The notes beneath the pieces are model-generated. The model ran no database searches and was not told where the DNA came from. It worked only from the letters and a program-made list of their open reading frames with translations. From IMG/VR virus record IMGVR_UViG_3300045988_132388: a stretch of 64,000 bases of DNA; one strand, given 5' to 3'. Positions within the stretch are counted from its first letter, which is position 1, and every line of letters begins with the position of its first letter. The DNA is from a virus. The position numbers and the translations under genes are program-made. Below, one piece after another: positions 2,632-51,879 of the stretch.

Positions 2632-2657
2632 ATATATATGTATCTTTAAGTTTTTTA

Positions 2658-20809: not shown

Positions 20810-20814
20810 AAAAT

Positions 20815-22629: not shown

Positions 22630-22651
22630 TAGAATTACAAAACGACAAAGC

Positions 22652-28280: not shown

Positions 28281-28359
28281 AATTCTTTGTCTTTGTTCCC
28301 TCCCGACAGCACACAGAAGATGAACGCTGCGAGGAGAAAGATGGTTAGTATTAGGATTG

Positions 28360-35914: not shown

Positions 35915-35939
35915 AAATCATTTTCTTTTAATGTTAATA

Positions 35940-38900
35940 TTAGAATGGCAAATCCTTGTCTTTTATCTGACTGACGGTATTTGCCGCATTATTAATCTCA
36001 CTGCTTCCGCCATAACGTTTCCCCTGCTTGCGCGACATAAAGTTCTCCCAACGGGTTTGTTCTTCGTCGGTAAGGGAAACTATATTACCATTGTCATCAC
36101 GATATGGCAGTGGATCGGGTTGCTCCGCGTAAGCACGGGCAATGCGCTTCAGCTCTTTATAGTCTTTCGGTATTTCGTCCTTGCCGGGGCGGTAGAAGAA
36201 GAACACATGCTTAGAGGTCTGAAGATAACGAATACATTTCATTTCTACCGTCTTGTCATTCTCCCACTCTCGACCTGAGAAGTACTCCTGTGTAACCCAC
36301 GCCTGTAACTTGAAACACTTGCGGTGCTTGTCAGCATCGTTCTCGAAAAGATGCTTAGGGTTGCAGGTGATACCCATATTCTCGCAATAGTCGTATATCT
36401 TCTTCTTGAAGGTGGCTCGGCTATACTCCTTCGATTTACCCTCGGAGGCATCAGCCCACTCACGCATAAACTCGTTAAACATATCGTCGGTACAGATAGG
36501 CACTCCATAAACCTCGTTGCGAGAAAAGAAAAACTCGAAATAGTTCACGATAGTCTCGGTGAGCTTCTGTACCATCTGACGGCGACGCACATTCTCCTGT
36601 GGTGCAATGGCAAAGGTATGGTAGCGCATGAGGAACTGAACTGCCAAGGCACAGATATAGATAATCTGATTGCGGTCAGCATCGGACAGGTCTTCGGGGT
36701 TCTTGCTAAAGCCTTTCAGTATATCGCTCATCATGCGTGCCGGTTGTCGTTTTTGCGGATTCTCACGTGCAAAACGGTTTGAGAAACTAACCAGCGGAAA
36801 ACGACCTATCGTAGACGAAGCATCATTAGACAATGGATAGTTTGATGTAATAACGTGTAGAGGCGAATCCTTCATCTTAAAGGAGATAGCATCACTATTC
36901 TTCCGCTCGGCATTCGTTCCACCAGTTATCTGAACATAGAAGTAATCCAACGGAAAACTTCTCGGTTTGTCTTCCCAATGAACCACTCTGAACTTGCCCG
37001 GATATTTTATAATGTCCGTCAAAACAAAACGAGCATCACCAATATCCTTAAAGTGTCGCATATCGACTCTGAACACATTGACGGCAGTACCGACGAAAGT
37101 ATTTATAACCCATGACTTGCCGGAGCCACCTGTTGCCTGTTTCTCGTCAGGAATAGAGTCTTCCAACAAGTAAGGACAGACATTCTCCATTTTATCCCAA
37201 GTGCGGAAACACACACGACCGATACCCGAAATCATATTCACAAAATGGCTGTTGATAACCGTCATATCGTCCACAGACATCTTTTGCTTGTTGCGAATAA
37301 CATCCTGCTCCTGTTCCCACAAAGTGTTGGCGCAACCACGAATGATACGCAATACCGGCCATAGGTCCTGCTCACGCTTACCGTTCCAATCCACTTGCCA
37401 ACGATATGTCTGCGCCCACTCAGCCAGTTCTGCTTTCATCTGTCCTATCTCTATGATAGAGAACACCGGCAAACCGTCCTCGTTGCGCATAGCCTCCTTG
37501 GCTTCAATAGACTTCTTCTTGTCAATATATTCCTGACTCTCCCTTATGGAGAATGGAGGGCTGAACACGCGCATCGTGAAGTCGTATGGCTTACGAGCCA
37601 AAGCCGGAATAAAAAAGTTGATATTGTCGTAATCGACAGGCAAAATCATATCGGGAGTAATCTTCAGAGCTACATTACGGAAATAGAAATATTCCGTCTT
37701 GGCATCAAAAGCGTCGGCAAAATCAATCACCATAGATAGCAAACCGCCCGCGCTCTTTTCAGAAAAAGTCTTGTCTACCATATTGGCACAATCCGACATA
37801 AGGCGTCGCTCGGTGTCACTGTGTCGCCAACACTGCTCGATAAAGTCAAGTAACAAATCTTTCATTGCCTGAATAATGCTACTACTGACGATATACTCAA
37901 CAAAGCAACGGTCGAGGTGTATATACTGTCCTACGAGGTCGGTACTCTCCGGATCCACCATGCGGTAATATCCGTGCGCACTCATAAAAAGCCACACCTT
38001 AGAGGGCGACACCTTACATGTAGGCGGTTTCGGTTTTCCACTACGAGGGTCGCGTGGATATTCTATCTCGAATGGGTTAGTATTCTTGGCTCCACGCAAA
38101 CGGCTATATAACGGTATGCGAATGTCATGGTCGAACTTAAAGTTATCCTCGTCAGTCATGTGGTAGGCAATCATATAGTCACGCACACTACGAGGCGAAC
38201 AACCATATAGCCATTGCCACCGTTGGTTATAACGTGAGCGGAACGCTTCGGGTAGCATTGCATAACAGAGATCACCGAACTTAGTGGCTATCGCTCCACA
38301 ATCTCGCTGCGAGGCGATATCATTCGGATAGAGCATTACAATACGCTCGGCAAAGCGATTCATTTTTTGATACTGGATAGGCTTAAAATCGATAGGGTCC
38401 AACTTCCACTTTCCATGGTCGATATACCAGAAATTGTTTCGCCCTATAGAGAATGCCACATGATACCAACAGTTGTATTGAAAATGCTGGTCTTCTGCCT
38501 TGTCGATACGCAAGGAGCGCATAGCATAATACACGCTCAATGCGTCTTCGGGTGTGCGACAAAACACGATATTACGAGCCTTTATCTCGTTAACGGGTAT
38601 CTTGACTTCTATTCTCCTAAACGTGCCTTTCGGTTCTCCATCCTTTGTCTCGTTTTCTCTCCAGTCCTCATAGGTCTGTGTGTATCTTTCTTCTGGTTCA
38701 AACTTTTCAATGGCTGCATGAACGGCAGTCGTTGAGCTATCACGATGATCCATAGCATAAGTGAACACCCTGTCGCCCATAAGCCAACGGCTCACCTTGC
38801 GTACACTGTGCTCTTCGCAAGTAGAGAACACTATCGGTTCGCCTTTCATTGCCGGACGGAACAGGCAGCCGCAAGAACCTTGTGGTGCTATCACGTCGGT

Positions 38901-39629
38901 GGCGAAACATACAAATAAAGGATTCCATGGTGTGCCGTAGATTATCTCGCTCACCTGTTTACCCTCACGCACCACATGGGGCAGCGTTACGCTATCTACA
39001 GCATAGATGCGGAAATCCCTGTTGAGCATGTCCGTAGTAAAGTCCTTGCCGAAACCAAAGGTAGGCAGACCTTTTACCAGTGTCACCTCACAGCCCAACG
39101 CAGCAAGTTCCTGTGGGTTGAAGTCCATCTTCGGCATGAACGAGAAGGTATCTATAGTCTGTGGCGCAATAGTACGATAATCCATCTTGCCAAAGAGCAT
39201 AGGGAAAGCAGCTCTCGTATCTTCCTTGTCGCCATAAACCCTTACCGCCAAATCCCGGCAAAGACGCAACAGACTGGCTCCGTGCATCGGCAAGTTGCGC
39301 ATGGCTGCATAAAGTTCCAATGCGCCATACCCCTGCTTGCCAGTCTTCGTACACTTCCAATGTACCGCACCATGCTTTGCCTGGGTATCATCATCAACCC
39401 CTACCCCATTATACAGGCCACCACGCTCATCATTATAAATGATGAAATGTGGCGTTTGTCCAGCATTCGCACTGCCATCAAACTGTAGGGCGTCATCCTC
39501 CGCACCCTTCTTCTGGCAGAAGGGACAGAAGCACGCTGTCTGACCTTGGAAGTGTTGCTCGTCGGCTGGCTTCACAAGGAAAGTCAGGTCGATATTGGCA
39601 AGACGGTTTATAATTGGATGGAATTGCAT
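35940..39629 (-). CDS. bifunctional DNA primase/helicase (Zn finger + TOPRIM-like + P-loop NTPase)
   Basis: 1229 aa. CFCPFCQKKG near the N-terminus. IVFCRTPEDALSV and VMLYPNDIASQRDCG are TOPRIM-like. Walker A ATGGSGKSW lies in the C-terminal third, as in P4-alpha/D5-type proteins. Confidence 0.6.
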   Translation of the reverse strand: MQFHPIINRLANIDLTFLVKPADEQHFQGQTACFCPFCQKKGAEDDALQFDGSANAGQTPHFIIYNDERGGLYNGVGVDDDTQAKHGAVHWKCTKTGKQGYGALELYAAMRNLPMHGASLLRLCRDLAVRVYGDKEDTRAAFPMLFGKMDYRTIAPQTIDTFSFMPKMDFNPQELAALGCEVTLVKGLPTFGFGKDFTTDMLNRDFRIYAVDSVTLPHVVREGKQVSEIIYGTPWNPLFVCFATDVIAPQGSCGCLFRPAMKGEPIVFSTCEEHSVRKVSRWLMGDRVFTYAMDHRDSSTTAVHAAIEKFEPEERYTQTYEDWRENETKDGEPKGTFRRIEVKIPVNEIKARNIVFCRTPEDALSVYYAMRSLRIDKAEDQHFQYNCWYHVAFSIGRNNFWYIDHGKWKLDPIDFKPIQYQKMNRFAERIVMLYPNDIASQRDCGAIATKFGDLCYAMLPEAFRSRYNQRWQWLYGCSPRSVRDYMIAYHMTDEDNFKFDHDIRIPLYSRLRGAKNTNPFEIEYPRDPRSGKPKPPTCKVSPSKVWLFMSAHGYYRMVDPESTDLVGQYIHLDRCFVEYIVSSSIIQAMKDLLLDFIEQCWRHSDTERRLMSDCANMVDKTFSEKSAGGLLSMVIDFADAFDAKTEYFYFRNVALKITPDMILPVDYDNINFFIPALARKPYDFTMRVFSPPFSIRESQEYIDKKKSIEAKEAMRNEDGLPVFSIIEIGQMKAELAEWAQTYRWQVDWNGKREQDLWPVLRIIRGCANTLWEQEQDVIRNKQKMSVDDMTVINSHFVNMISGIGRVCFRTWDKMENVCPYLLEDSIPDEKQATGGSGKSWVINTFVGTAVNVFRVDMRHFKDIGDARFVLTDIIKYPGKFRVVHWEDKPRSFPLDYFYVQITGGTNAERKNSDAISFKMKDSPLHVITSNYPLSNDASSTIGRFPLVSFSNRFARENPQKRQPARMMSDILKGFSKNPEDLSDADRNQIIYICALAVQFLMRYHTFAIAPQENVRRRQMVQKLTETIVNYFEFFFSRNEVYGVPICTDDMFNEFMREWADASEGKSKEYSRATFKKKIYDYCENMGITCNPKHLFENDADKHRKCFKLQAWVTQEYFSGREWENDKTVEMKCIRYLQTSKHVFFFYRPGKDEIPKDYKELKRIARAYAEQPDPLPYRDDNGNIVSLTDEEQTRWENFMSRKQGKRYGGSSEINNAANTVSQIKDKDLPF

Positions 39630-39769
39630 ATAGTTCTTTTTATATATAAAAGGACTGTCGGCAATGTGTCTGTATCAGACATAAACGCCCCGAAGCCTTT
39701 AATCCTTAGCGAAATATAAGATACGTGATATATTATCACCCACACTGCCTTCAGTCCTCTTTTTTTAGT

Positions 39770-40198
39770 TTATAGATTTACGAAAGTATTGAGCTTATAG
39801 TATCTAACCTTGCAGTTGCAGATTCTCTTTATGTGAGCTACCAGCAATACAGTAAGCTCACTGAAGGAGATAAACTGCTCGTTGATGCCGATAATTCGTA
39901 CCGCCACCCTCCAGTAACATTTTCCATTGCGTCGGCGACAGGAATGTTCGTTGCTGATAATCATATCCTGGACACTGCCGTTCATCACGTTAAAGATAAA
40001 CTGACAAGCATCTCTTATCAACTCAAACGGCGCTTGAAAAAGTAATACCCGCTCGTCGTAATTGTCCCCACGCAAAGCCTCGGTATAGGCAATACGATGG
40101 ATAAGAGCATAGGGCGAGGTACGTCCGTCCCGTTTTATATTTTCACGGTTAGGAGTGTAGGGCTTTGAGAAGATGTGACTATAGACCCGCTTTCCCAT
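39770..40198 (-). CDS. hypothetical protein
   Basis: 142-aa ORF. Confidence 0.55.
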   Translation of the reverse strand: MGKRVYSHIFSKPYTPNRENIKRDGRTSPYALIHRIAYTEALRGDNYDERVLLFQAPFELIRDACQFIFNVMNGSVQDMIISNEHSCRRRNGKCYWRVAVRIIGINEQFISFSELTVLLVAHIKRICNCKVRYYKLNTFVNL

Positions 40199-40199
40199 T

Positions 40200-40859
40200 T
40201 TATGCTTTTTCAGAAATGTTCAAACTGCTCAGATATTTCATTATTTGCCACGTTGAATAGATACTACGTTTGCAATCATAGACAGGATTGTGCGGCTCGC
40301 CAGGTCCGTCGTATTCATCAACCAACCTGCAAGCCCTGCTGCAATCAAACTCCCCACCTGCCTTGTCGCAGACAATTTTCGCACCTTCCATAAAGAATGT
40401 GCGGTGGTCGCGGAAATTCTTGTAGCTGACAGGACTCTCGATACCATATTTGCTGCATATATTCTTTAATATGGCAATATCAAAATCAGAACCTTGTGAC
40501 CACAACTTTACTTCTTTGGTAGAAGTTTCGTCTTGCACATACGCGATAAAACTAAAAAAATCCTCTATGACGCTATCTATCGACTGTAGAGGTTTTTCGT
40601 CGTAATCCAACAATGACTTTTTTACATCATCGCCCTGTGTTGCCCACCATTCCGATGTCTTTCTATCAAAGGTTAGTCCATCAATAAATGATGATCGCAG
40701 GTCAACGTGACGATAAAAAAAGTAACCGTCGGAAAGACCGTCCGTAAAAGGATCGTCTTCCGCCGCGGCATTCCATGCCACAGCTCCGATGCTCATCACG
40801 GCAGCCGTGGGGCACAAGGCACAGGTTTCTAAGTCAAAGGTTATATTCAATTCACCCAT
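40200..40859 (-). CDS. DEDDh 3'-5' exonuclease
   Basis: ExoI FDLET, ExoII WSQGSDFDIAIL, ExoIII HNPVYDC. Confidence 0.7.
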   Translation of the reverse strand: MGELNITFDLETCALCPTAAVMSIGAVAWNAAAEDDPFTDGLSDGYFFYRHVDLRSSFIDGLTFDRKTSEWWATQGDDVKKSLLDYDEKPLQSIDSVIEDFFSFIAYVQDETSTKEVKLWSQGSDFDIAILKNICSKYGIESPVSYKNFRDHRTFFMEGAKIVCDKAGGEFDCSRACRLVDEYDGPGEPHNPVYDCKRSIYSTWQIMKYLSSLNISEKA

Positions 40860-40874
40860 AAAATACTCTATTTT

Positions 40875-41345
40875 TTAATTAACAAATTCTTCGATAATGG
40901 CTTTCACGCCCTTTAATTCCCAAGGTTTCCAGTCATCCGCCTTGAAACGGGTACGGACTGTCATCTGGGAAGACATGCCCAGTTCCGACATCCTATCACA
41001 AAGAACCTTTCCCATCTTTAGGTTTGTGACAAGTTCGTAAAACTTTCTGTCGTTATATTCTGAAGAGAGTGCAAGCACAGCACCATATCCTCTGCTGCCT
41101 TCCTCTCCTTCCGGTATATTATCGGTATTACTCTTCTCTTTTACAAGAAAAGAGTCTTTTATATGCGACACTCCCATAATCTCCCACTTGCAGAATCCTT
41201 TGTTGAAGAACCTGTTATAGCAGGTTGATTTAGGCATGCCATACCCCTCAAACAAGACGTATAGCCTTTTTTTCTCTTCGGGGGTAAGTTCTGTAGCAGA
41301 TAATATACCGCCGTCAAATATTTTCTTCCAAATATTCTTGGTCAT
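40875..41345 (-). CDS. hypothetical protein (first gene of the leftward replication operon)
   Basis: 156-aa ORF, divergent from the HTH gene at 41466. Confidence 0.6.
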   Translation of the reverse strand: MTKNIWKKIFDGGILSATELTPEEKKRLYVLFEGYGMPKSTCYNRFFNKGFCKWEIMGVSHIKDSFLVKEKSNTDNIPEGEEGSRGYGAVLALSSEYNDRKFYELVTNLKMGKVLCDRMSELGMSSQMTVRTRFKADDWKPWELKGVKAIIEEFVN

Positions 41346-41372
41346 TCAAATGATAAATTTTATATTTGTATG

Positions 41373-41380
41373 CAAAGATA
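41373..41380 (-). promoter_or_regulatory. Bacteroidota -7 box TATCTTTG
   Basis: caaagata on the plus strand, 28 nt upstream of the start at 41345. Confidence 0.45.
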
Positions 41381-41465
41381 GCGCATATTACACGACTATC
41401 CAATAATATTACCATTTTTAACATAAAAAATTATTCGAATATCATACAATTTAAAATTTAACAAA

Positions 41466-42068
41466 ATGAAAGAGCATAACATCGTGTACAATTATGGGTT
41501 TCTCGCCGACTGGATGCAGGCTAACCCATCTATTAAGAGAAACGAGATTCTTCAAAGCATGGAGATGAGTGACTACAACACCTTGCGCAACTGGGTGGAT
41601 GGTATAACAATGCTCCCGCTTACACAGCTGATGAAATTCTGCAACCGCTTCAATATTCCCATTACTGCATTCTTTCTGGATGAGAAAGCCGACGACACAT
41701 CAATCATAGCACCTATCACACCAAGCTCTATGATTGAACCTGCCAGAGGATGGCCCGACTCCAACCGGAAGGCAGGTATCAAGGTGTGCGACCCACGCTC
41801 TAACGTCCACATGATTACGAACATGCCTGACTATATAAGAGAAAGGGACACTACGGATATTTGCGAACAGACCTCAGATAATATTAGTAGTGTGCCAGAG
41901 AAAGAACGAATGCGTTACATTGATATAATAGAGAAGCTCAACGACCGGTTAATGGCTCTGTCCGAAGAGAATATCAAACTGAATAAACAGATAAACAAGA
42001 TGAAAAAAGAAAGGAAGGGAAATATTTACGGCTACGGCATGGTTGCAGAAACCGACCCTCATATATAA
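41466..42068 (+). CDS. putative HTH regulator (repressor-like), coiled-coil C-terminus
   Basis: 200 aa. The N-terminal ~70 aa (NEILQSMEMSDYNTLRNWVDGITMLPLTQLMKFCNRFNIPITAFF) has XRE-like HTH architecture. The gene is divergently transcribed. Confidence 0.5.
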   Translation: MKEHNIVYNYGFLADWMQANPSIKRNEILQSMEMSDYNTLRNWVDGITMLPLTQLMKFCNRFNIPITAFFLDEKADDTSIIAPITPSSMIEPARGWPDSNRKAGIKVCDPRSNVHMITNMPDYIRERDTTDICEQTSDNISSVPEKERMRYIDIIEKLNDRLMALSEENIKLNKQINKMKKERKGNIYGYGMVAETDPHI

Positions 42069-42073
42069 CAAAA

Positions 42074-42105
42074 GCATCCGCCTATCTTCGCAGACTGGCG
42101 GATGC
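42074..42105. terminator. hairpin terminator between converging genes
   Basis: GCATCCGCC...GGCGGATGC, flanked by A/T runs. Confidence 0.6.
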
Positions 42106-42165
42106 AACAAAAACAAAAAACTAAAAACGTCTTTTTAAATAAACCTATGATTAACTAACTTAAAC

Positions 42166-42687
42166 CTATGTCTCGTTTATAGCCGCCATACGACGGTGGT
42201 AAAACTCCTTTTTTTCTATCGGAGTAACTGATATGTCTGCTGTCAGATACGGAACACTAATGTACCAATATCCGTGATGTAGGAATACCATTGGTGTCTC
42301 ATTGCCGAAAGAGAACGGCAAGGAAAGTCCGTCTTTATTCTTCTGTGGGATGAAATTCAGTATACCTATCAGTTCTGACTCGCTTACCACCGGCAATGAA
42401 TACATTTCTTTTTCCAACTCGGAGCCTTCCTCTGGTAAAAAGAACGTGCGACCATCCGGTGTGGCTATCTTCTCCCATCCGTCTTTAATGACGGTATTGT
42501 CAAACTCCACGGCGCCTACTCCTCCTGCCATTCCTTCAGCAGACTCGTAATAGTGGCTTGCGCCTACTTTCTCTGCCCACTGTCGAGCGGTTTCTTCTGC
42601 TTCGGCGCAACGCTTCATAAATTCCTGTAGTTTCATGCCTACCTGACTTTCGCCGGATGTCTTGTAATAATAATGTGGCTTACTCAT
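42166..42687 (-). CDS. hypothetical protein
   Basis: 173-aa ORF. Confidence 0.6.
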   Translation of the reverse strand: MSKPHYYYKTSGESQVGMKLQEFMKRCAEAEETARQWAEKVGASHYYESAEGMAGGVGAVEFDNTVIKDGWEKIATPDGRTFFLPEEGSELEKEMYSLPVVSESELIGILNFIPQKNKDGLSLPFSFGNETPMVFLHHGYWYISVPYLTADISVTPIEKKEFYHRRMAAINET

Positions 42688-42749
42688 AATCTTATAGTAA
42701 TTATTTATTAATGATTATTTATTAGGGATTAATTGCTGGTGATTAGTGG

Positions 42750-43043
42750 TTATCTCAGTCTGCAATAGATGACGGGTTCGCCGCATTCATCATTCCGCAT
42801 TTTAAAGCCTCGCAACTCCAATTCTTTGAGATACAATGCTAACGGATCACCCAGGGGACAAACTACAGCCTTGAAGTATGTACGCAACTGATAGTCGGTA
42901 TACATATCGCAATCCTCCGTCCAATGATCCTGCGGCTTGTACCGTTCACAGAACGCCTGTATCTTGGATGGTATAACGAAGTCCTGAAGTGTTACTTCCG
43001 GCTGCACGGAAATTGCTATTTCATCCTTTTTCTTTTGTCCCAT
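42750..43043 (-). CDS. hypothetical protein
   Basis: 97-aa ORF. Confidence 0.55.
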   Translation of the reverse strand: MGQKKKDEIAISVQPEVTLQDFVIPSKIQAFCERYKPQDHWTEDCDMYTDYQLRTYFKAVVCPLGDPLALYLKELELRGFKMRNDECGEPVIYCRLR

Positions 43044-43048
43044 AACAG

Positions 43049-43639
43049 TTACTCGTTTTTATGTTTCCTTGCGTCAGACCAAGCTATAAAGGCAACGATT
43101 GCCGTCACAAACAGGAAAAAGAGTGTTCTTAGCCACCACGGTACAACAGTTTCGTTCTTCGTGCTCTTCTCTTTCACTATATTCGTACTATCATTCTGCA
43201 TCCAATGTGTCCAATAGGAATCGAAATAATGGTTTGCAACGCTATCCATGTAGTTTAGAAGTAATGCTGTCTGTTCCTCCTTGTGTCGCTGCAGCATCTG
43301 TGTGTCTGCCTGTTTGCTAAAGCTATTCTTGCGCTTAATGGTTCTGTCGGTTGTCGTGGTCTTGTTGCCGAACGAATCCTGACTTTCAACGATACGCTCG
43401 GTAATGGTTTCCTCGTAATCGCCGTTCTCCATTGTGGAGGTGAAAACGTGAGAGCTGTCTGACACTGCACCCGACACTACATTTAAATCCTTTCTGACTG
43501 AGGCTGTAGTGTCATACGCAGCAACCGTCACGCTATCTCTTACCTTTTTCGATATACCGACCGCAGCCTTTTGTGAGGTGGCACATGCCGACAATAGCGT
43601 AAATGCTATCAATACCCATATAACTTTATAAATCTTCAT
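43049..43639 (-). CDS. lipoprotein with C-terminal TM anchor
   Basis: Signal plus lipobox MKIYKVIWVLIAFTLLSAC. C-terminal hydrophobic LFFLFVTAIVAFIAW. Confidence 0.65.
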   Translation of the reverse strand: MKIYKVIWVLIAFTLLSACATSQKAAVGISKKVRDSVTVAAYDTTASVRKDLNVVSGAVSDSSHVFTSTMENGDYEETITERIVESQDSFGNKTTTTDRTIKRKNSFSKQADTQMLQRHKEEQTALLLNYMDSVANHYFDSYWTHWMQNDSTNIVKEKSTKNETVVPWWLRTLFFLFVTAIVAFIAWSDARKHKNE

Positions 43640-43663
43640 TGCCGTTATTTTTTATTTCCGTTA

Positions 43664-43671
43664 CAAAGGTA
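43664..43671 (-). promoter_or_regulatory. Bacteroidota -7 box TACCTTTG
   Basis: caaaggta on the plus strand, 25 nt upstream of the start at 43639. Confidence 0.45.
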
Positions 43672-43754
43672 CGTAAAACTAAAATAACGAACAGGACATG
43701 CTAAAACACCGCCCTACCCTATCCAAGGTAAGACGGTGTGTAAAAAAATATGTA

Positions 43755-45350
43755 TTACTTGATTTTTCTATATTGCAATACAATTTTTTTTCGCTTGTCG
43801 TTCTTGAAACAATGTCCAAGAAGCTGACTTAACTTATTGAAAGAAATGTCATCTTTTATGGCATTCTCCATACCTTCTATCTGCTCCTGTGTAACAACAA
43901 GCTGAACGGTGTTGCCATCGTATTGATCAAACGTCATCTTTCTCAACAAGCCTGACAATTCACAACCCAACCACTCGCCTGTTTCGCCATCAAGCATGGC
44001 GATAAGCTGCTGCCATTCCTTTTCGCCCGGCTTAGGCTTTACATCTTCGGTACCAGCAAACAGGAGGAGTTGCTGCTGCACCTCGGTTTTCTTACTATGC
44101 TGCTTTATCCATTGCTCCATAATATAAAAGATAAAGTTCTCTGTCGTGCCACTCCAACTGTGCGGCTGCTCCACCGCCTTTGGCACACCATTATAGGCAT
44201 ACGTCTTAAAATCGCTCCAGAGGTCTTCGGGAACATCGGCAACAAATGCTTTGAGCTGTTCTTTGTCGAGTGTGGGGTATAGCGACATCAACTTGGCGCA
44301 TAAACGCTTTTCTGACGAACCGCGATGCAGCTCTATTTCTCGCGCTACGCCCAACGGTGTGCGCTTGATGTGAAACTTTATCTTCTCAGGATTGCCTCGT
44401 TTTGCACTGCCTCTATAAATCGGTTCGTAGCCTTTTTTGTCAGGATCGGTACATGCCAGCATTATCTCAATCTTGTTTTCCTCACAGAGTCGCTCCATGT
44501 CACCACGTGCTACGTCCAACACCTGTTTGCGAAACTGCGAGAACTTCTGATACTTCTCAGTAGTCACAACTTTTGCGGGCTGCATATCGTCACCTTTCTC
44601 AACATCAACTTTGAACATCCCCAATGCTTCCTTCAGTTCGCGATAATCAATAGAAGGGTGCATCTGGCCCTTGCTCGCATATTTCATCAGAAGAAGGTAA
44701 AGACGTGACGTATAAGCCGAATTGCAGAAGTAAGCTATACGTTCAAGATGGTTGAAATATCCGTCTGCCATATCAAACACGGCTTTTGCCACCTCTATAT
44801 TAATTGTTACCTCAATATACCCGTCACGACGAAACTTGCGCACTTCCAGTCCGTCCTCGTCTATCTTTGTATCGCCGTCTCTGGAATAGTTGAAGTCTCC
44901 TCCTTCTCGCGACGTGAAGTTTTTCGGAATAAATATCTTACTGAAGATAGGCATATAGTCCTCACCTTTTCTAAGTCCTGTCTCCGGATCGAAACGCGGC
45001 AGGTGAAACTCTATCTTCTTCATCTGGTTTATCACCTTTACCGATTCGTCATAATGGCTGCTGTCTATACCAAAATCAGCCAGGCGCAGACGTATGGGTC
45101 CCATCTTCAACAGGTCTTCTTTCGTGATTCCTCCGTTAGGACGTTCTTTGCTTAGATATCGGTGTTCGTTCAAGAACTTGGCGAAATGGTCTTGCAGTCG
45201 TCCGCTTACCAGCAACATAACGTCCTGTTGTATGAGAGAATAACTTTTAGCGTATGACGCATAGTTGACAGGTGTGTTTATCCAACGCAATTCGTTCAGG
45301 GCTATTTGAAGTTTGCCTTCTTTGTCTTCTTTTTTTGCTTTCTTTGCCAT
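43755..45350 (-). CDS. plasmid-type replication initiator (Rep_3-like), tentative
   Basis: 531 aa. Its start codon abuts the iteron arrays. The N-terminal YSLIQQDVMLLVSGRLQ resembles the Rep_3 opening helix pattern. Confidence 0.55.
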   Translation of the reverse strand: MAKKAKKEDKEGKLQIALNELRWINTPVNYASYAKSYSLIQQDVMLLVSGRLQDHFAKFLNEHRYLSKERPNGGITKEDLLKMGPIRLRLADFGIDSSHYDESVKVINQMKKIEFHLPRFDPETGLRKGEDYMPIFSKIFIPKNFTSREGGDFNYSRDGDTKIDEDGLEVRKFRRDGYIEVTINIEVAKAVFDMADGYFNHLERIAYFCNSAYTSRLYLLLMKYASKGQMHPSIDYRELKEALGMFKVDVEKGDDMQPAKVVTTEKYQKFSQFRKQVLDVARGDMERLCEENKIEIMLACTDPDKKGYEPIYRGSAKRGNPEKIKFHIKRTPLGVAREIELHRGSSEKRLCAKLMSLYPTLDKEQLKAFVADVPEDLWSDFKTYAYNGVPKAVEQPHSWSGTTENFIFYIMEQWIKQHSKKTEVQQQLLLFAGTEDVKPKPGEKEWQQLIAMLDGETGEWLGCELSGLLRKMTFDQYDGNTVQLVVTQEQIEGMENAIKDDISFNKLSQLLGHCFKNDKRKKIVLQYRKIK

Positions 45351-45352
45351 AT

Positions 45353-45434
45353 CTACGGATTTGTTTACTTAAACCTACGTTTTTATGTACCAAAACCTAC
45401 GGATTTGTTTACTTAAACCTACGGATTTGTTTAC
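45353..45434 (+). repeat. iteron array, 4 x CTACGGATTTGTTTAC at exact 22-bp spacing
   Basis: Copies start at 45353, 45375 (degenerate), 45397 and 45419. Confidence 0.85.
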
Positions 45435-45603
45435 TTCGTATGCTCTAACTCGTTGATTTTCAACTCCTCCAAATCTCCTTAATATAATTATAATATAAAC
45501 TATTATTTTATTCCTTTTGAAAACGAATAAATCCATATCTTATAATTATATTATATTAAGAGGTTTTGGACATATTGATTATCAGTTAGTTATCTACGGC
45601 GAG

Positions 45604-45685
45604 GTAAACAAAAACGTAGGTTTTGGTAAACAAATCCGTAGGTTTAAGTAAACAAATCCGTAGGTTTTGGTAAACAAATCCGTAG
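45604..45685 (-). repeat. iteron array in inverted orientation, 4 x at 22-bp spacing
   Basis: GTAAACAAATCCGTAG starts at 45604 (degenerate), 45626, 45648 and 45670. A ~170-bp AT-rich spacer with its own inverted repeat lies between the two arrays. Confidence 0.85.
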
Positions 45686-45751
45686 GTATTATAAGCCAAA
45701 AACAGCACACCTTTGTAGTGACTTGGTAAAAAACTTTAGTAGGATTTTACC

Positions 45752-46189
45752 TTACTTGTTTCTATCCAAGAACTCTATCACAGCCTGTAGCGCCAAATCC
45801 TTGATAGGTATACCCGTGCGCATTTTCATCAGGGCAATGCGCTCGTAATACTCCATAGGCACGTAAATAGTAATACCGTTCTCGGTCTTTCTGCCCTTCG
45901 GCTTGCGCATGTTCACAGCAATATCGTTACTAAACGATGTTGTTGCCGGCTGATCTGCTACATTTGTCGGTATCTCTGTCTCAGTTGTTGTAGGAGCAGT
46001 CGGCTTGTCTGTACCCAGAGTGTCTGAGGATGGCGCTGGGGCGGTACCCGCCGCTTCCCTACTCTCCTTTTTCTCTCTGTTCTCCTTACGCTGTTGTCTT
46101 CCCGTCTCCAGTATGCGCTCGTTTTCGTCTATTGCGTCCGAATTCTCCAAATCGAAAGGTAAAACTCGCTTTTTCATTTCTCTTGCCAT
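45752..46189 (-). CDS. ribbon-helix-helix partition adaptor (ParG/CopG-like), tentative
   Basis: 145 aa. Disordered N-terminus. C-terminal ITIYVPMEYYERIALMKMRTGIPIKDLALQAVIEFL fits a strand-helix-helix pattern. Lies immediately downstream of parA. Confidence 0.5.
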   Translation of the reverse strand: MAREMKKRVLPFDLENSDAIDENERILETGRQQRKENREKKESREAAGTAPAPSSDTLGTDKPTAPTTTETEIPTNVADQPATTSFSNDIAVNMRKPKGRKTENGITIYVPMEYYERIALMKMRTGIPIKDLALQAVIEFLDRNK

Positions 46190-46204
46190 ACCTTATATAA
46201 TATA

Positions 46205-47080
46205 TTAAAACGTGAAACTGTTGATTATTTCCTTAGTAAAACGCTCATAGTCCTGCCCCACCCTACAATATGGTGCATAAGAAAAAATATCCTCACGCAT
46301 AGCCTGAGCTTCCACCATCTTCGTATCGCGACGTGTGTAAGCGTCAAACATATAGTCCTGGTACTTCTCACCCAGGTATGCTTTAAACTCCTTTGTGGCG
46401 TTCGTCTGGTCGTTACTCATAACCATCAGCAAGCCACGAATATCAAGGTCAGGATTCAAATCCTCGCGCGTCTCCTCGATGGCATTGATAATCTCGGCAA
46501 TACCTTTTGTCGCCAATACTTCGAGCTGCACGGGCAATACCACGCTTGTGGCTGCTGTCAGTGCGTTGTACGTGAGCAACGACATGGCAGGGGGACAGTC
46601 TATCAGCACGTAGTCGAAAGCTTCCGTAACGGTCGTTACGCCCTCGTCTGCCAGTTCTGTACCGCTCAACTCGTTCAGTGGTTTTGTGAGCAACTTATAA
46701 AGTGCCTTGCGGGGCATGGCTCTCTGGTTTAGGAAGGGTTCGATGGATATAAGTTGTGAAGCTGCCGGAGCGAGATAGATGCCATCGCGTACCTGATAGA
46801 TGGGCAGATTGCTCTGCTGTACCAATGCGTCGTAGACGGTAGGCTTGCCAACGTTCTGAGTCTCGCTCCATCCGAAGAGGAACGATGCACATGCCTGGGG
46901 ATCGAGGTCTATGATGAGCACACGCGGTAAACGCTTGTGTCCGTCGGCATCCGTGCCAAATTTTCCCTTACCAAAGATGCGCAGTCCTGCTGCCAAGCTC
47001 TGTACTGTTGTTGTCTTACCTACTCCCCCCTTATGGTTTACGAAGGCAAGAACTTCTCTTAGTCTTTCCATATTCTTCAA
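46205..47080 (-). CDS. parA: ParA/Soj partition ATPase
   Basis: Deviant Walker A NHKGGVGKTTT; 291 aa. Confidence 0.9.
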   Translation of the reverse strand: MKNMERLREVLAFVNHKGGVGKTTTVQSLAAGLRIFGKGKFGTDADGHKRLPRVLIIDLDPQACASFLFGWSETQNVGKPTVYDALVQQSNLPIYQVRDGIYLAPAASQLISIEPFLNQRAMPRKALYKLLTKPLNELSGTELADEGVTTVTEAFDYVLIDCPPAMSLLTYNALTAATSVVLPVQLEVLATKGIAEIINAIEETREDLNPDLDIRGLLMVMSNDQTNATKEFKAYLGEKYQDYMFDAYTRRDTKMVEAQAMREDIFSYAPYCRVGQDYERFTKEIINSFTF

Positions 47081-47194
47081 GTTTTAAAATGTTTATATTG
47101 TCTATTCCAGTCTTCAGAAACACTATGCTTTCTGTAAGACGTTACAAATTTAAGAATTATAATCCACATTCGCAAACATTCACGCACATTTATT

Positions 47195-47375
47195 TGTTTA
47201 TTTGTTGATTTCTTCCTTTATTTGTGACTTTATTTGTTGATTTCTTTGTTTGTTAATGTATGAATTTATGTGTTTGTGGATTTGTGTATTTATGTATGGA
47301 TGTATTTGTGTCTATCCATAAATACACAAATGTGGTTTTATGGTTTTGTGGAAATGTGGAAACACACAAAAACAT
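47195..47375. repeat. repeat-rich region upstream of parA (candidate centromere/operator)
   Basis: Many TTTGT(G/T)/ATTTGTG units plus the inverted repeat GTGTATTTATG-ATGGAT (47284-47301) / ATCCATAAATACAC (47314-47327). A TAAATTTG -7 box lies at 47146-47153 (minus strand). Confidence 0.5.
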
Positions 47376-47386
47376 TGTGCTCATTA

Positions 47387-48081
47387 TCAGTCCCATTCAT
47401 CATTTACAGTAATATCCACGCCTTCCTTTTCTCTTATACGTTCCGACCGAAGGGGCAGGACGCAATACTTCGTCTTCATTCCGGCGCGCGTCACGGTGGA
47501 GTGAGGCGTGAAGGTATAGTATTCGCCCGTGCCATACTGTGTGCCTCTTGCCTTGGCATCTGCATCCGCAGGAGTATCGTAGCACAATATGCGCTGCTTG
47601 CTATACCAGTAGCCTTCGGGCAAGTCGGCATACTTCAACACCTGCGCAGCCTCCAATCTCGTAGGCAGTCTGTAGCGAGAGTCGGTAATCAGCACCGATG
47701 GGGTGGGGCAGTCTTCTACAGGCGTGAGCACGTTCGCCGTTACCGTCCATGGTGCTGACGTAGCATCGAGTAGGGTAGGGTTGTCGCTCCTTGTTGCCAC
47801 CACCTTCAGCACGTGCTCACCATAGTCGAGCGTCAGGTCAGGCTCGGCAAAGTCCGTTGCCGTGCTCGTCTGATGGAGCACCTGCAGCAGCTTACCCGTC
47901 GCCTTGTCGTAGTCCATGACATAGAGGTCTGTCAGCATGCTGCCGTTAGCAGAAAGTGCGGCACGGGTGCCTTGCCTGTCGGTTGTCCGCTCTCTACTAA
48001 ATCTTCGTTGTCACCGTTGCATGATACAATCGTCATGCCTGCGGCTGCAATGGCAGCAATCATCATCAAATTAGATTTCAT
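47387..48081 (-). pseudogene. lipoprotein gene split by a frameshift (signal peptide and body in different frames)
   Basis: ATG at 48081 gives MKSNLMMIAAIAAAGMTIVSCNGDNEDL... and stops at 47 aa. The 183-aa ORF 47387-47938 is open upstream in another frame (..GTRAALSANGSMLTD..). The body contains YRLPTRLEAAQVL (DUF1566-like). Confidence 0.5.
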
Positions 48082-48201
48082 AATCTTTAGATTTTAGTTA
48101 GTAAATTGATTTTGAAGCCAACAGAAAACACAAAATCCACAGAATATTTTAATAGACAAATTCCGTTCATTCCGTACCTTCTGTTGGCTTATAACAGTGG
48201 C

Positions 48202-48432
48202 TTACCCTACAAGCGAACGGACAAGGTTTGATCCCTTCTCTGTCAGCTCATACACATCCTCATTGAACATTCGCTGATACCACTTTGTAAGATAACCTGC
48301 TTCAACAAGCTCCTCCAGCTCGGGGCACGCTGCCGTTCCGTCGCTTCTACGATGATACCCTGCGAAGCCTTTGTTCCGGATATGCTTCATTTCCATAATC
48401 TGCTCACTTGAAAATTTCTCTGTTTCTGCCAT
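48202..48432 (-). CDS. hypothetical protein
   Basis: 76-aa ORF. Confidence 0.5.
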   Translation of the reverse strand: MAETEKFSSEQIMEMKHIRNKGFAGYHRRSDGTAACPELEELVEAGYLTKWYQRMFNEDVYELTEKGSNLVRSLVG

Positions 48433-48499
48433 AATTATATAAAGTTAAAGTTTAAAATGTTATATTATGTCTATAAAAGAGGCAGTCCTTATAGTTGTT

Positions 48500-48814
48500 T
48501 CACCTCTTCTTTACCTTCTTCTCTGAAAGAGAGACTGCCTGTTTCTTCTTCAACCAGGGATAGAGCCAATACCCCTCATAGGGCTGTTGAGCTCTAATGA
48601 TAGCATATTCTTCGTTATGCTGAAACAAATCGCTTGGAATCTTCTCTATCACCTTCCCTTCCAGCTCGAAATAATGCGTCACCCTGCACTCCTTCAGGAG
48701 TTCATAAAACGGATCGTCGAAATAATCGGCGAAGATATGCTCCTGAGTGTCAAGATTCAGAAACTCAAACGAGCAAAAAGGGGCGTCAAAGAAGGCTTTT
48801 AGTATTTTGTACAT
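48500..48814 (-). CDS. hypothetical protein
   Basis: 104-aa ORF. Confidence 0.55.
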   Translation of the reverse strand: MYKILKAFFDAPFCSFEFLNLDTQEHIFADYFDDPFYELLKECRVTHYFELEGKVIEKIPSDLFQHNEEYAIIRAQQPYEGYWLYPWLKKKQAVSLSEKKVKKR

Positions 48815-48876
48815 TGCTCTTACATTAATGAAAATTATTATTCATTCCTCTGCGCATTCTGCGTATTCTGCGGTTA

Positions 48877-50406
48877 TTATTTACTGAACGCACCTCCAAG
48901 AAGCGGTAGCAAGAAAACTCCTGCACCAAGCAGTGAGAACAGCAATACACATGCGGCTGCAATCAGCAGGGCTGCCAACGCATAGGTCAGAATTTTCTGG
49001 GCGCTGAAAGGAGAACTTTTCGACATCAACACGGTGCCATCGTTGTTTACTCGCAGCGTCGGCTCGCCTACCTGCGGATAGTTACGCTTGCGCTTCGGCT
49101 TCGGCTGGGGTATAGGTTCCGACTCTACTTCTAACTCTACATCCGACTTTGCTTCCGGCTCCTTACTCTGATTGAAATCCTGCTCTATAACGTGAGGCTC
49201 CGGATGATGAACAATACCCGATTCTTCCTCCACCTTACCATCCACACACACGATAACGTCGCCGTGCAAGCTGACCTCTATCTTGCAGCCCGGCACAAGG
49301 TCCTTTTGGTTGAAGGTCTTTTCGCTTCCGCAGTTGGCATGGGCAAAGCAGTGACCGTTCATCTCCACTTCGTCGAAGTCGGCTACATACGTCACCTTGC
49401 CAGTCTTCTCGCCTACCGTGGTATGATGGCCGCGATAAGTGGTAACAGCCTTGAATACGGGACGAAACTTAAACGCGCAGTTATATTTAGCGTCATGGTC
49501 GGTCTGTCCGATGCGGTCGTAATAGTCGTAGTTGTCAAACTTGAATACGAGTCCGTCGGTAGGGTAGGGCAGCTTCTCGCGCTTCACCTCGGCAGCACAC
49601 ACGACGTTCTCGATGTCCTGCTCCAGCTCGGCATCCGTCTTTTCGAGATTGAGAGCCGACACGAAGCCCGAAGTCTTAAAGCCGTTACGCTCCAAGGCTT
49701 GCATCGCCGGCATGTGTCTTGTCACTCCATCCATGATAAGACGGAAGGGATGAAACTCCAGACGCTTGCACTCGTCCTTTACAGCCACCTTCTTGGACAT
49801 GATGCCGTTGCTCGTAGAACGGGGTGATTTGCCAGCCTTGCTATAACGGACAAACTCCTCAAGCGAGATAATAACCTCACCTCTCACCTCCACTCGGTCG
49901 TACTGGCTCCATGTGTCCACATGGGCAGGGACACCCTGCACATGCTTTATATGGTCCAGGCAGTCGTTGCCAAACAGCTCCTTGCCATGCCCATAGGTGG
50001 CTTCTGCCAACACTCCCTGGCGATATACTAAGCTCACGGTCTCGCCGTCAAACTTCCATTCTACAGCTACCTCCGTGCCCTTGCTGCTGATGTTTGCGGC
50101 TCTCTGCTGCGCTCTCAGGTATTTCACCACCGCCTTGGCATCATGCAACTTCTTCATGGAGAGGCATGCCGTGCGACGTGCCACGGTACGCTTGCCGTTG
50201 CCGTTCTCGCTGTAGCACTGCTGAGTAGGAGAGTCGGGCAATATCTCGTCCGCGTGCTGCTCTTCGTACTCCTGCAAGGCAAAGTACATCGCGTCGTATT
50301 CCTCGTCGCTGATGGTCGGACAGTTCAGCCCGAAGTATCTATAGTCGTGCATCTTCACCACGTCCACCAACGCACGATAATCGTCAAAATCCTTAATCTT
50401 AGCCAT
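48877..50406 (-). CDS. ligA: NAD-dependent DNA ligase (LigA-type adenylation + OB) lacking HhH/BRCT, with C-terminal TM segment
   Basis: N-terminus YRYFGLNCPTISDEEYDAMYFALQEYEEQHADEILPDSPTQ. KxDG motif EWKFDGETVSLVY. Only 509 aa. The last ~40 aa (ILTYALAALLIAAACVLLFSLLGAGVFLLPLLGGAFSK) are hydrophobic. Confidence 0.75.
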   Translation of the reverse strand: MAKIKDFDDYRALVDVVKMHDYRYFGLNCPTISDEEYDAMYFALQEYEEQHADEILPDSPTQQCYSENGNGKRTVARRTACLSMKKLHDAKAVVKYLRAQQRAANISSKGTEVAVEWKFDGETVSLVYRQGVLAEATYGHGKELFGNDCLDHIKHVQGVPAHVDTWSQYDRVEVRGEVIISLEEFVRYSKAGKSPRSTSNGIMSKKVAVKDECKRLEFHPFRLIMDGVTRHMPAMQALERNGFKTSGFVSALNLEKTDAELEQDIENVVCAAEVKREKLPYPTDGLVFKFDNYDYYDRIGQTDHDAKYNCAFKFRPVFKAVTTYRGHHTTVGEKTGKVTYVADFDEVEMNGHCFAHANCGSEKTFNQKDLVPGCKIEVSLHGDVIVCVDGKVEEESGIVHHPEPHVIEQDFNQSKEPEAKSDVELEVESEPIPQPKPKRKRNYPQVGEPTLRVNNDGTVLMSKSSPFSAQKILTYALAALLIAAACVLLFSLLGAGVFLLPLLGGAFSK

Positions 50407-50441
50407 ATTCTATAAAGTATTTAAAATGTTATTATTTATTT

Positions 50442-51002
50442 TCACTTCTCTACTTGCGCCAATACGCCTACGACCCGTGCTTTGTCGTCGATGTACCTAT
50501 TAACCAGACAATAGTCGCCTGTCTTCACCTGCTCGTAAGTAATACGCTTATAATCCCCGAAGCTTCCCGACGGTCTGTAATAACGTCGCTTACTTTCGTC
50601 TTCAGGGCATTCTGACGGTGAACTAATAACAAGGGAGCCAATGTTATTGCGGAAAACGCCATCTTTCCACGTTCCTTCCTTGTAAACATGGTAAGTCTCA
50701 GGCTCTTTTACCTCCGACAATATCATGTCGCGAGCCTTCAATCCTAAGTCAGCATAAGGCTCGGTAAGGTCTACCTCAAAATCAAAGCAGGTTGCAGCGC
50801 GAAGAATGCACATCGCATAATCTGTCACAGCACCCTTGCCTCCGCTCGTAACGCGCACACAGCGCATGGTCTCCGTGATATACTGGCCGCCTCCGTGCTG
50901 GATGATCCACTCATGCACATCGTCGGCTACGATATACCGCCGTGTCCTGCCCTCCATGGCAGGGCGACCGGCTCTTGTATTTTCAGTCTTTATAATTTCC
51001 AT
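50442..51002 (-). CDS. hypothetical protein
   Basis: 186-aa ORF. Confidence 0.6.
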   Translation of the reverse strand: MEIIKTENTRAGRPAMEGRTRRYIVADDVHEWIIQHGGGQYITETMRCVRVTSGGKGAVTDYAMCILRAATCFDFEVDLTEPYADLGLKARDMILSEVKEPETYHVYKEGTWKDGVFRNNIGSLVISSPSECPEDESKRRYYRPSGSFGDYKRITYEQVKTGDYCLVNRYIDDKARVVGVLAQVEK

Positions 51003-51014
51003 ATTTCCGTCGTT

Positions 51015-51665
51015 TTAATCCTCGTCTATAATACCGTTGTATGTAGCCTCTTTCACTTTCAGCTCCGCAGGCAGCCATGCAGGCCACCAGGTAACATCTA
51101 ACGCCCATTGGTGCATATCGCAACCCTCTGTACGATAACTCCAAAACACGTGCAAGATACTGAACACTTCCCAAGCCTCGCTGTCGGTCAGCTCCGACAA
51201 CACGCCTCTCAGATTCTCCTCTTCGGCTTTCGTCATATCCACACTTTTCTCCATCTCCAACCAGTCGCACACCTCGGCATACAACATACAAGCAGCGTGC
51301 ACCGAGTCCACATCCGTCAACAGCAGACTGTTTGTAGCCGCAGCCATAGCGAGCCAGTAGTTTTCATTGCTCAACTTCCAAATAGCAGAGCGACGATCGT
51401 CCCAGTCATCACACAATGCTACCTCTGCATGATTCTCTGCCATCCAGTCGCCTATCTCTCGCATGATACATGCCATTCCCGACGCATCGGAAGGGTCGAA
51501 GTCGGCGGGGATTTTTACCTCCTGACTTTCATTAAACAAACCTTCGCGAAACTCAATCGCGATGCCACTCTCATTGTCCTTCACCGTCCACATCAGATTC
51601 TTGCCCGATGTCAACTCAAATCTTTCTTTTGCCATAATATTTCTTTTTATTTTTTTACTTTTCAA
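51015..51665 (-). CDS. hypothetical protein
   Basis: 216-aa ORF. Confidence 0.6.
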   Translation of the reverse strand: MKSKKIKRNIMAKERFELTSGKNLMWTVKDNESGIAIEFREGLFNESQEVKIPADFDPSDASGMACIMREIGDWMAENHAEVALCDDWDDRRSAIWKLSNENYWLAMAAATNSLLLTDVDSVHAACMLYAEVCDWLEMEKSVDMTKAEEENLRGVLSELTDSEAWEVFSILHVFWSYRTEGCDMHQWALDVTWWPAWLPAELKVKEATYNGIIDED

Positions 51666-51879
51666 TCATTTTCAGTTCCGCGCCTAACGCTCCTGCAATC
51701 TTGTTGAGAACGTCGATATTAACGGCATACTTGCCGGCTTCCACACTGCGGACGTTGGCAGGAGTGATACCCGCGATCTGGGCGAGCTGCTCCTGCTCCC
51801 AACCCTGGGCGGTGCGCATCGCACGGATGCTCTCGCCCATGGCCTTACGCTTGTCATAAATTATTTGGTCTTTTTCCAT
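51655..51879 (-). CDS. XRE-family HTH protein
   Basis: IRAMRTAQGWEQEQLAQIAGITPANVRSVEAGKYAVNIDVLNKIAGALG is a typical HTH_3 domain. Confidence 0.75.
   Translation of the reverse strand: MEKDQIIYDKRKAMGESIRAMRTAQGWEQEQLAQIAGITPANVRSVEAGKYAVNIDVLNKIAGALGAELKMIEK

Follow-up and report, generated by a model that had tools for sequence, protein, structure and literature searches.

We analysed a window of 64,000 nt, the whole stretch of virus DNA held in IMG/VR record IMGVR_UViG_3300045988_132388, which belongs to a tailed phage of ~100 kb from human-gut Prevotella/Segatella. A block at positions 43755-47375 of the window carries, in minus-strand order, parA, rhh, a putative origin and rep, with all four genes or sites present. 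It is best explained as a complete low-copy plasmid maintenance cassette on a tailed phage. No integrase was found over the ~84 of ~100 kb that were scanned, and the phage would therefore lysogenise as a free circular plasmid. In our judgement a P1-like circular plasmid prophage of Prevotella/Segatella is the probable lifestyle. A preliminary description of the window had already proposed an extrachromosomal replicon, and this reading is supported by in-silico predictions that held; lysogeny itself we infer. Two observations go beyond that description: the cassette is syntenic with the replicon of a Segatella copri plasmid, and its two halves co-vary with their own repeats and reassort.

Rep, its iterons and the partition operon

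The block contains the following genes and sites:

43755-45350, minus strand: rep, 531 aa, predicted iteron-type (Rep_3/RepE/pi-like) initiator
Domains of Rep: N-terminal ~335 aa, winged-helix core; C-terminal ~195 aa, domain specific to the phage family
45353-45440: Rep-proximal iteron array, four 22-bp units with core CTACGGATTTGTTTAC, the second unit degenerate
45441-45597: A+T-rich spacer of ~160 nt, putative DNA-unwinding element
45598-45691: Rep-distal iteron array, four 22-bp units, inverted relative to the proximal array
45752-46189, minus strand: rhh, 145-aa ParG-like putative centromere-binding protein with a ribbon-helix-helix (RHH) domain, starting 15 nt past the parA stop
46205-47071, minus strand: parA, 288 aa from ATG (alternative TTG start at 47080), small Walker-type partition ATPase
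47145-47152, minus strand: promoter box TAAATTTG, Bacteroidota-type -7 box upstream of parA, inside TTATAATTCTTAAATTTGTAACG
47185-47375: centromere/operator-like array of ~23 consecutive 8-bp units (ACACAAAT, ACATAAAT, CCACAAAC and similar), with an inverted segment

The preliminary description saw in this block a Rep-like initiator abutting iteron arrays, and several comparisons bear it out. Residues ~20-336 of Rep share 29-33% identity (~315 aa) with annotated plasmid Reps of Segatella copri/hominis. A profile of 21 Rep family sequences matches the R6K pi initiator (PDB 2nra) at its iteron-binding WH2 domain (E=5e-5), and the top match of a PDB fold search with an AlphaFold2 (AF2) model is F-plasmid RepE (2z9o, probability 1.0). 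NCBIfam RepM matches below its threshold (5e-6), and precomputed PF01051/PF21205 assignments are present on several Rep homologues. Taken together these matches, which are convergent and weak to moderate rather than above a curated threshold, support a predicted Rep_3-type initiator. A Rep homologue of 86% identity is present in public databases as a protein of 'Siphoviridae sp. ctMOb8'. A tblastn search with Rep against 50,697 phage records gave no match, and neither did megablast of window 40000-50000 against phage and plasmid collections.

The C-terminal ~195 aa of Rep have no counterpart in the Segatella plasmid Reps. Within the phage family, residues ~340-531 (window 43755-44340) contain invariant motifs, for example VPKAVEQPH.W.GT. 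After RepE, the fold search returned a chain of the SirA-DnaA domain I complex (4tps) and small RbfA-type alpha/beta proteins over ~87 aligned columns, with no query region reported for these matches; if they fall in the C-terminal domain, one possibility is that this domain is a helicase-recruitment module. Directly downstream of rep, a minus-strand gene (43049-43639) encodes a predicted lipoprotein of 196 aa, with a signal peptide ending in LLSAC and a C-terminal hydrophobic segment. The lipoprotein gene is found 3' of rep in almost all relatives, yet the proteins are only 25-42% identical; it could encode a superinfection-exclusion or membrane-tethering factor.

The proximal iteron array begins 3 nt upstream of the rep ATG, a position that makes it the likely site of autoregulation. 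With up to two mismatches, the 16-nt core CTACGGATTTGTTTAC has 7 matches in 64 kb (0.02 expected), and these occur only at 45353-45685. The core of the spacer (45470-45560) is 85% A+T, against 54% window-wide, and the spacer includes an 18-nt inverted repeat (45480-45497 / 45536-45553). The distal array comprises four iterons in the window and two in the 99.98%-identical assembly k119_216065 (L001 9700-9760), a difference of 44 nt. A single copy of AGTCACTACAAAGGTG lies on the minus strand between the rhh stop and the iteron array (45708-45723). It closely resembles TCACTACAAAAGTG, the iteron of Rep variants 33-37% identical to the window Rep, and may have been left behind by a cassette swap or be a conserved site.

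Also recovered was the ParA ATPase with a downstream RHH adaptor that had been proposed. ParA has the deviant Walker A motif KGGVGKT and no N-terminal helix-turn-helix (HTH) domain. It matches AAA_31 (2e-36), CbiA (3e-12) and phrog_164, a family of ParA-like partition proteins (2.5e-46), and its top NCBIfam families are plasmid partition ATPases; judged by these matches, the family call is unambiguous. The RHH protein of the window has no Pfam match when searched alone. The family profile of its C-terminal domain (GITIYVPMEYYERIALMKMRTGIPIKDLALQAVIEFLDRNK) matches the RHH protein ORF56 of pRN1 (2k9i, E=4.5e-4), and a divergent variant (L219) passes Pfam RHH_1 (23.2, threshold 20.5). The protein is built of a basic N-terminal peptide (MAREMKKR...), a disordered low-complexity linker rich in S/T/P/A, and the C-terminal RHH domain; the basic peptide (MAREMxKK...ENERIL) and the low-complexity linker are seen in many RHH variants. 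A tail, a linker and an RHH domain make up the architecture of ParG-type centromere-binding proteins. As for the family calls tested with hidden Markov models, that of ParA stands above threshold, while Rep and the window RHH protein fall below the Pfam threshold or have no Pfam match and are backed by profiles instead.

The DNA upstream of parA is repeat-rich, as first described. The ~190 bp at 47185-47375 have a lag-8 autocorrelation of 0.62, against 0.34+/-0.03 after shuffling, a value reached in 0/2000 shuffles. The motif [AC]A[CT]AAA[TC] occurs 12 times in this array, where 0.17 occurrences are expected. The TAnnTTTG promoter boxes claimed for the block are confirmed in part: TAAATTTG lies upstream of parA, but no such box was found upstream of rep, and the coding strand of the block has only two. 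The promoter-like sequence TTATAATTCTTAAATTTGTAACG around TAAATTTG is conserved in 4/6 relatives compared in this upstream region.

Family-wide reassortment and Segatella plasmid homologues

Related phages are numerous: 1791 terminase clusters, 1130 marker-protein clusters and 146 IMG/VR stretches came up in the searches, and the family is very prevalent in the gut and apparently undescribed. Of the loci long enough to show it, 55 from IMG/VR and 2 from metagenome-assembled genomes (MAGs), nearly all have the order parA, rhh, ori, rep; one locus (L218) shows no ParA. Most loci examined have two inverted arrays of 3-5 iterons each, with 22-bp spacing and starts ~190-250 bp apart, and this two-array layout persists even where Rep is only 31% identical. 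The iteron sequence itself is particular to each Rep variant (CCTCCCTTTTTGT, CCTCTCATTTTGTTTAC, TCACTACAAAAGTG, ACCATCTTGTTTAC and others). The two halves of the cassette can differ greatly in their relatedness to the window. In loci L220-L222 ParA is 96% and RHH 84% identical but Rep only 37%; in L196, Rep is 80% and ParA 45% identical.

Protein identity was compared with k-mer similarity of the DNA across 43 loci (903 locus pairs). Rep identity has a Spearman correlation of 0.88 with origin k-mers and of 0.05 with parA-upstream k-mers, and RHH-domain identity one of 0.77 with parA-upstream k-mers and of -0.04 with origin k-mers; because the pairs are phylogenetically non-independent, these correlations describe modular linkage and not probabilities. 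Where ParA is >90% but the RHH domain <70% identical, upstream similarity drops from 0.54 to 0.13. Such a drop at constant ParA indicates that the array tracks the DNA-binding protein and not the ATPase. The rep/iteron and RHH/upstream-repeat modules thus reassort independently, like plasmid incompatibility determinants. This is the pattern expected if Rep reads the iterons and the RHH protein reads the 8-bp array, both being under diversifying selection. Diversified specificities are typical of plasmids meeting in one cell, which argues for a plasmid phase; a purely lytic origin would not predict them. We also considered the RHH protein as a CopG-like repressor of Rep copy control and rejected this role, because the protein assorts with ParA and the parA-upstream repeats and not with Rep and the iterons.

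Searched against 72,556 plasmids, ParA and Rep both have their best matches in plasmids of Segatella. Plasmid unnamed2 of S. copri DSM 18205 (NZ_CP085934.1) has parA, a small RHH-type gene, iterons and rep in the same order and orientation as the phage. Its ParA is 39.5% identical to that of the window and its Rep 30% identical over the core. The gene between parA and the iterons encodes 100 aa with an RHH-like C-terminus, and 8-bp-unit repeats lie upstream of parA, as in the phage. The plasmid iterons (GTAAATAnnnnnnGTGGTTT) share with those of the phage the 22-bp spacing and a TGTTTAC-type element, but are arranged as at least 7 direct and 2 inverted copies, in contrast to the symmetric 4+4 of the phage. 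The plasmid Rep (431 aa) lacks the C-terminal ~195-aa domain of the phage Rep. A second plasmid, NZ_CP137558.1 of S. copri HDE06, encodes a ParA of 36% identity followed by a 92-aa RHH-like partner; its Rep homologue (32% identical) is encoded elsewhere and does not adjoin parA. The Segatella plasmids with related replicons are true plasmids without phage genes. Judged by this synteny and homology, the phage cassette is a diverged version of a replicon with demonstrated plasmid maintenance in the host genus.

Contigs of the phage family are binned in Prevotella MAGs, and their repeated binning suggests host-like coverage. Together with the Segatella relatives of Rep and ParA and the Bacteroidota-type box of parA, this signal points to Prevotella/Segatella as the host, in agreement with the Bacteroidota host of the preliminary description.

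The phage genome and its mode of persistence

Two independent assemblies, k119_216065 (ENA ERZ27229675, 99,779 bp) and BRIT16-1 scaffold_95 (ERZ28572548, 100,056 bp), match the window at 99.98-100% identity; they are circular permutations of each other and have no host flanks. One end of the MEGAHIT contig k119_216065 falls within the terminase gene, at window position 25473, a point that the window and scaffold_95 run through, and the contig extends 10 kb past both window ends. The ~100-kb map is therefore circular or terminally redundant and contains no host DNA, as would be required of the element first proposed. The following phage and accessory genes of the window bear on its identity:

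11088-16556, minus strand: tape-measure-like protein, 1822 aa, PhageMin_Tail PF10145 above threshold
17749-18279, minus strand: holin, Phage_holin_4_1 above threshold
23711-25705, plus strand: probable large terminase, 664 aa
61168-61575, minus strand: HicB-like antitoxin candidate adjoining hicA, UPF0150-like match below threshold (20.4 vs 27.3)
61637-61816, minus strand: HicA toxin, HicA_toxin 36.1 bits vs threshold 27, candidate plasmid-addiction component

The tape measure and the holin-like protein named in the preliminary description are thus both upheld by family matches. The large terminase is retained as probable: the 664-aa open reading frame (ORF) matches phrog_2 (2e-4) and has Walker A (AARRVGKT), Walker B (LVGDE) and nuclease-type (ALDYN) motifs, but phmmer against the PDB gave no match, and the AF2 model (14 homologues) has a predicted local distance difference test score (pLDDT) of 36, too low to support the call. 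For the proposed HicAB module, HicA is secure by its score but its HicB-like neighbour stays below threshold. Further genes of the window encode a collagen-like tail fibre, a sliding clamp, an NAD-dependent ligase and a primase-like protein; the flanks, known from the near-identical contig, contain a head maturation protease, tail proteins, a lysozyme and a diversity-generating retroelement (DGR).

Several large proteins conserved in the family (586-610, 321, 372, 930 and 348 aa; L180 12629-19343, L100 10001-11806) have no PHROG match, and nearly all are without a Pfam match, apart from one weak DUF6712. By sequence, this lineage stands structurally very far from the phages described so far. 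The marker protein of 586-610 aa was considered as a portal and not called as such, having no PHROG match. The DGR (RVT_1 reverse transcriptase and bAvd; L006 11493-13388) lies just past the window end at 64000 and adjoins tail genes and the lysozyme. This tail/DGR module is shared at 90-97% with contigs L090/L097 and L253, which are otherwise without detectable similarity in the stretches compared. In the window the tape-measure-like gene adjoins the holin, away from the tail genes; the contigs that share the tail module (L097 9794-15613; L253 66-5642) have a different tape-measure-like gene, of ~1850-1940 aa, directly upstream of the tail genes. The genome may encode two tape-measure-like proteins or have an unusual layout. 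The collagen-like tail-fibre region (27390-29210; 394-aa ORF at 28360-29544 with DUF7666 and Collagen) contains repeats, and its repeat content differs between the two near-identical assemblies. Genes for MazG, ThyX, guanylate kinase, two radical-SAM proteins, a PAPS-reductase-like protein and an N6/N4 methyltransferase are found at 1308-4326 and 19265-23422, a nucleotide-metabolism and DNA-modification cluster that may point to modified DNA.

Regulatory genes are also present. A full-length LysR regulator (HTH_1 and LysR_substrate; 9557-10462, plus strand) lies on the strand opposite to the adjoining tape-measure-like gene. Three small Cro/CI-type HTH proteins are encoded at 60735-61082 (plus), 62468-62821 (plus) and 51655-51879 (minus), two of them by genes that run against their surroundings and flank the HicAB pair. 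All three are candidates for an immunity switch. HicA, the three Cro/CI-type proteins, the LysR regulator and the lipoprotein gene by rep make up a gene content typical of temperate phages.

The absence of an integrase and of a tRNA-type attP, noted in the preliminary description, extends to the larger scan. None of the Pfam families listed for genes called across the ~84 kb is that of an integrase, recombinase, transposase or protelomerase, and ARAGORN found no tRNA gene in the window. A tblastn search with three Bacteroidota tyrosine integrases through 3.86 Mb gave no match in the window or in 135 family loci; its only matches were in unrelated phage loci, which served as a control. The homologue clusters number 199 for Rep, 1130 for the marker protein and 1791 for the terminase; among the best 120 matches listed per search, no contig is longer than 116 kb and none has host flanks. 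A relative's 21.7 kb, continuing from the flank at the window start, contains methylases, an acetyltransferase and genes without a family match but no recombinase; this stretch may or may not correspond to k119_216065 35170-51401. Structural and tail modules are mosaic among the relatives (L010-L012, L090/L097, L100-L179, L180, L253-L257), and for this reason the relatives provide no clean bridge across that region. An exact 45-nt pattern from the end of L004 had no match in IMG/VR.

By homology to RepE/pi, to ParF/ParG-type systems and to HicAB, the cassette would work as follows. Rep monomers would bind both inverted 22-bp iteron arrays and open the 85% A+T region between them, and the opened origin would give theta replication with host enzymes, probably with the aid of the clamp, ligase and primase-like protein of the phage. 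Since the proximal array abuts the rep start codon, Rep probably acts through it as an autorepressor, and pairing of iterons (handcuffing) probably limits copy number. The RHH protein would bind the 8-bp-periodic array as both centromere and operator, the resulting partition complex repressing the par operon; its basic N-terminal tail would stimulate the ATPase of ParA, which would segregate the copies of the plasmid across the nucleoid in the manner of type Ib systems. HicA with its HicB-like neighbour would kill cells that lose the element. In lysogeny the phage would persist as a free circular plasmid, like P1, with the lytic switch under the Cro/CI-type regulators.

Several points weigh against a plasmid prophage. 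The case is built from sequence; no cultured lysogen was found, and the genome collections searched contain the phage in no isolate genome but only in MAGs; two further NCBI assemblies that contain it also look like MAGs. No multimer-resolution recombinase was found, nor did the analysis bring out a CI/LexA-type (S24) repressor, an antirepressor or anything else recognisable as a switch between lysis and lysogeny. The recombinase scan covers ~84 of the ~100 kb, k119_216065 35170-51401 (~16 kb) lying outside it. There is no DnaA box (TTATCCACA-like, up to one mismatch) in the origin at 45350-45750, the sole such site of the block being at 47160, near parA; DnaA boxes are not universal among Rep_3/iteron-type origins. 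On Rep, Pfam Rep3_N scores 19.7 bits, under its threshold of 22.4, and the AF2 model is moderate (pLDDT 70; template-modelling score to RepE 0.38 target-normalised and 0.18 query-normalised). The rep gene is located within the phage DNA-replication module (ligase, exonuclease, clamp and a 1229-aa protein that received no annotation from family searches), and so Rep could be the general initiator of the phage, lytic growth included. This location, like the lack of an S24-type repressor or switch and of cultured lysogens in genome collections, would suit a strictly lytic or carrier-state phage (pseudolysogeny), in which Rep and the iterons are the phage origin, ParA and RHH position or segregate replicating genomes, and a repressed plasmid prophage does not exist. 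Iteron origins do occur in many lytic or integrative phages, for example lambda O/ori. Against such a phage speak the complete partition operon with its own centromere-like array, the toxin-antitoxin module, the synteny of the cassette with resident Segatella plasmids, the repeated binning with Prevotella MAGs and the temperate-type content of Cro/CI-type, LysR and lipoprotein genes. The rep and par cassettes moreover reassort into many specificity types, as under incompatibility selection among co-resident plasmids. We consider the lytic or carrier state unlikely, while giving it some weight.

An ordinary integrating temperate phage would have its integrase and attP in the ~16 kb outside the scan, and its plasmid genes would be accessory or transient. 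The mosaic structural modules mean that relatives offer no proof of what this region contains, but no recombinase appeared in ~84 kb or in the relative's 21.7 kb, and the tblastn search that was positive in unrelated phage loci was negative in the 135 family loci. Since the window also has no tRNA gene, and the best 120 homologue clusters per search include no contig >116 kb and no host flanks, we regard integration as quite improbable. A linear plasmid prophage of the N15 type in place of a circular one is a shade more improbable still: permuted virion and prophage forms, as in N15, also give circularly permuted assemblies, but the Pfam listing over ~84 kb has no protelomerase family, and both the Rep_3-iteron origin and the plasmid homologues in Segatella belong to systems of circular plasmids. 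Nothing specific favours a chimera of plasmid and phage contigs, which is effectively refuted by the same junctions and gene order in two independent assemblies (99.98-100%) and in >55 independent contigs from many samples.

There is also a wider reading, for and against which we see about equal odds: globally prevalent, uncultured tailed phages of ~90-106 kb from Prevotella/Segatella would be obligate plasmid prophages that captured a native Segatella replicon (Rep_3-iteron and ParA-RHH) and diversified into many incompatibility types by independent cassette swaps. Independent swapping of rep/iteron and RHH/centromere modules would then imply frequent co-residence and competition in host cells, and Bacteroidota would have in this family their first phage-plasmid lineage of the P1 style to possess a full partition system. 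The replicon and partition genes of the family would then provide tools ready for use in S. copri, a genetically difficult species. Many abundant gut phages have no integrase, and how they persist is an open question, to which this family gives a concrete and testable answer for Prevotella/Segatella, a genus dominant in non-industrialised gut microbiomes, for which hardly any phages have been characterised. The cassettes, reassorting as Rep/iteron and RHH/centromere units, constitute a natural specificity series for the study of plasmid incompatibility, and the 3.6-kb cassette, like the plasmid replicons homologous to it, is a candidate backbone for vectors in S. copri genetics.

Comparison with known systems

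The phage-plasmid concept and both modules are already known, and members of the family are already in public databases as sequences. The type Ib partition systems TP228 ParF/ParG-parH and pSM19035 delta/omega combine a small ParA, an RHH partner with a flexible tail and a repeat centromere that is also the operator. The window shares with them the small deviant-Walker ParA, the RHH gene directly downstream and short, closely spaced repeats upstream of the operon. Its RHH protein has distant or no sequence similarity to ParG/omega, its best RHH structure match being ORF56 of pRN1; it is longer (145 aa) with a long low-complexity linker, and the repeat unit of ~8 bp has its own consensus. With the Rep_3 initiators R6K pi, F RepE and pPS10 RepA the window Rep has in common the profile match to pi WH2, the fold match to RepE and iterons by an A+T-rich region. 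It differs from them in being sub-threshold in Pfam and in its extra C-terminal ~195 aa, and the origin differs in its symmetric inverted iterons around an A+T-rich core, with no DnaA box detected.

P1 is a plasmid prophage with RepA and iterons, ParA/ParB-parS and Phd-Doc. The window phage follows the same logic: a tailed phage without integrative lysogeny, with an iteron-binding initiator, ParA partition and an addiction module (PMC10983915 and general knowledge). P1 has a large type Ia ParA with ParB/parS, in contrast to the small ParA with an RHH partner seen here, and it has Cre-lox and a Proteobacterial host, whereas no resolution recombinase was found here and the host belongs to Bacteroidota. 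Megablast and Rep tblastn against 50,697 phage records revealed no sequence relatedness to known phage-plasmid groups (P1, N15, SSU5 and similar).

A literature search found no described phage-plasmid of Prevotella/Segatella, no described phages of S. copri and no description of the phage family of the window. Flandersviridae, Quimbyviridae and Gratiaviridae were considered as its group and are different phages by the text of the papers; LoVEphage is set apart as a different phage by what titles and abstracts state. The expectation that few such elements have been described in Bacteroidota holds for Prevotella/Segatella, but one is already on record: crAssphage (Carjivirus communis), a gut Bacteroidota phage without an integrase, has been reported as a phage-plasmid and proposed to be extrachromosomal (PMC10983915). 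Its plasmid genes are two RepL-type initiators, and partition is mentioned in that report only for P1 (PMC10983915). CrAssphage belongs to the podovirus-like Crassvirales and uses RepL, whereas the window phage, unrelated to it in sequence, combines a Rep_3-type initiator and its iterons with a full ParA-RHH operon.

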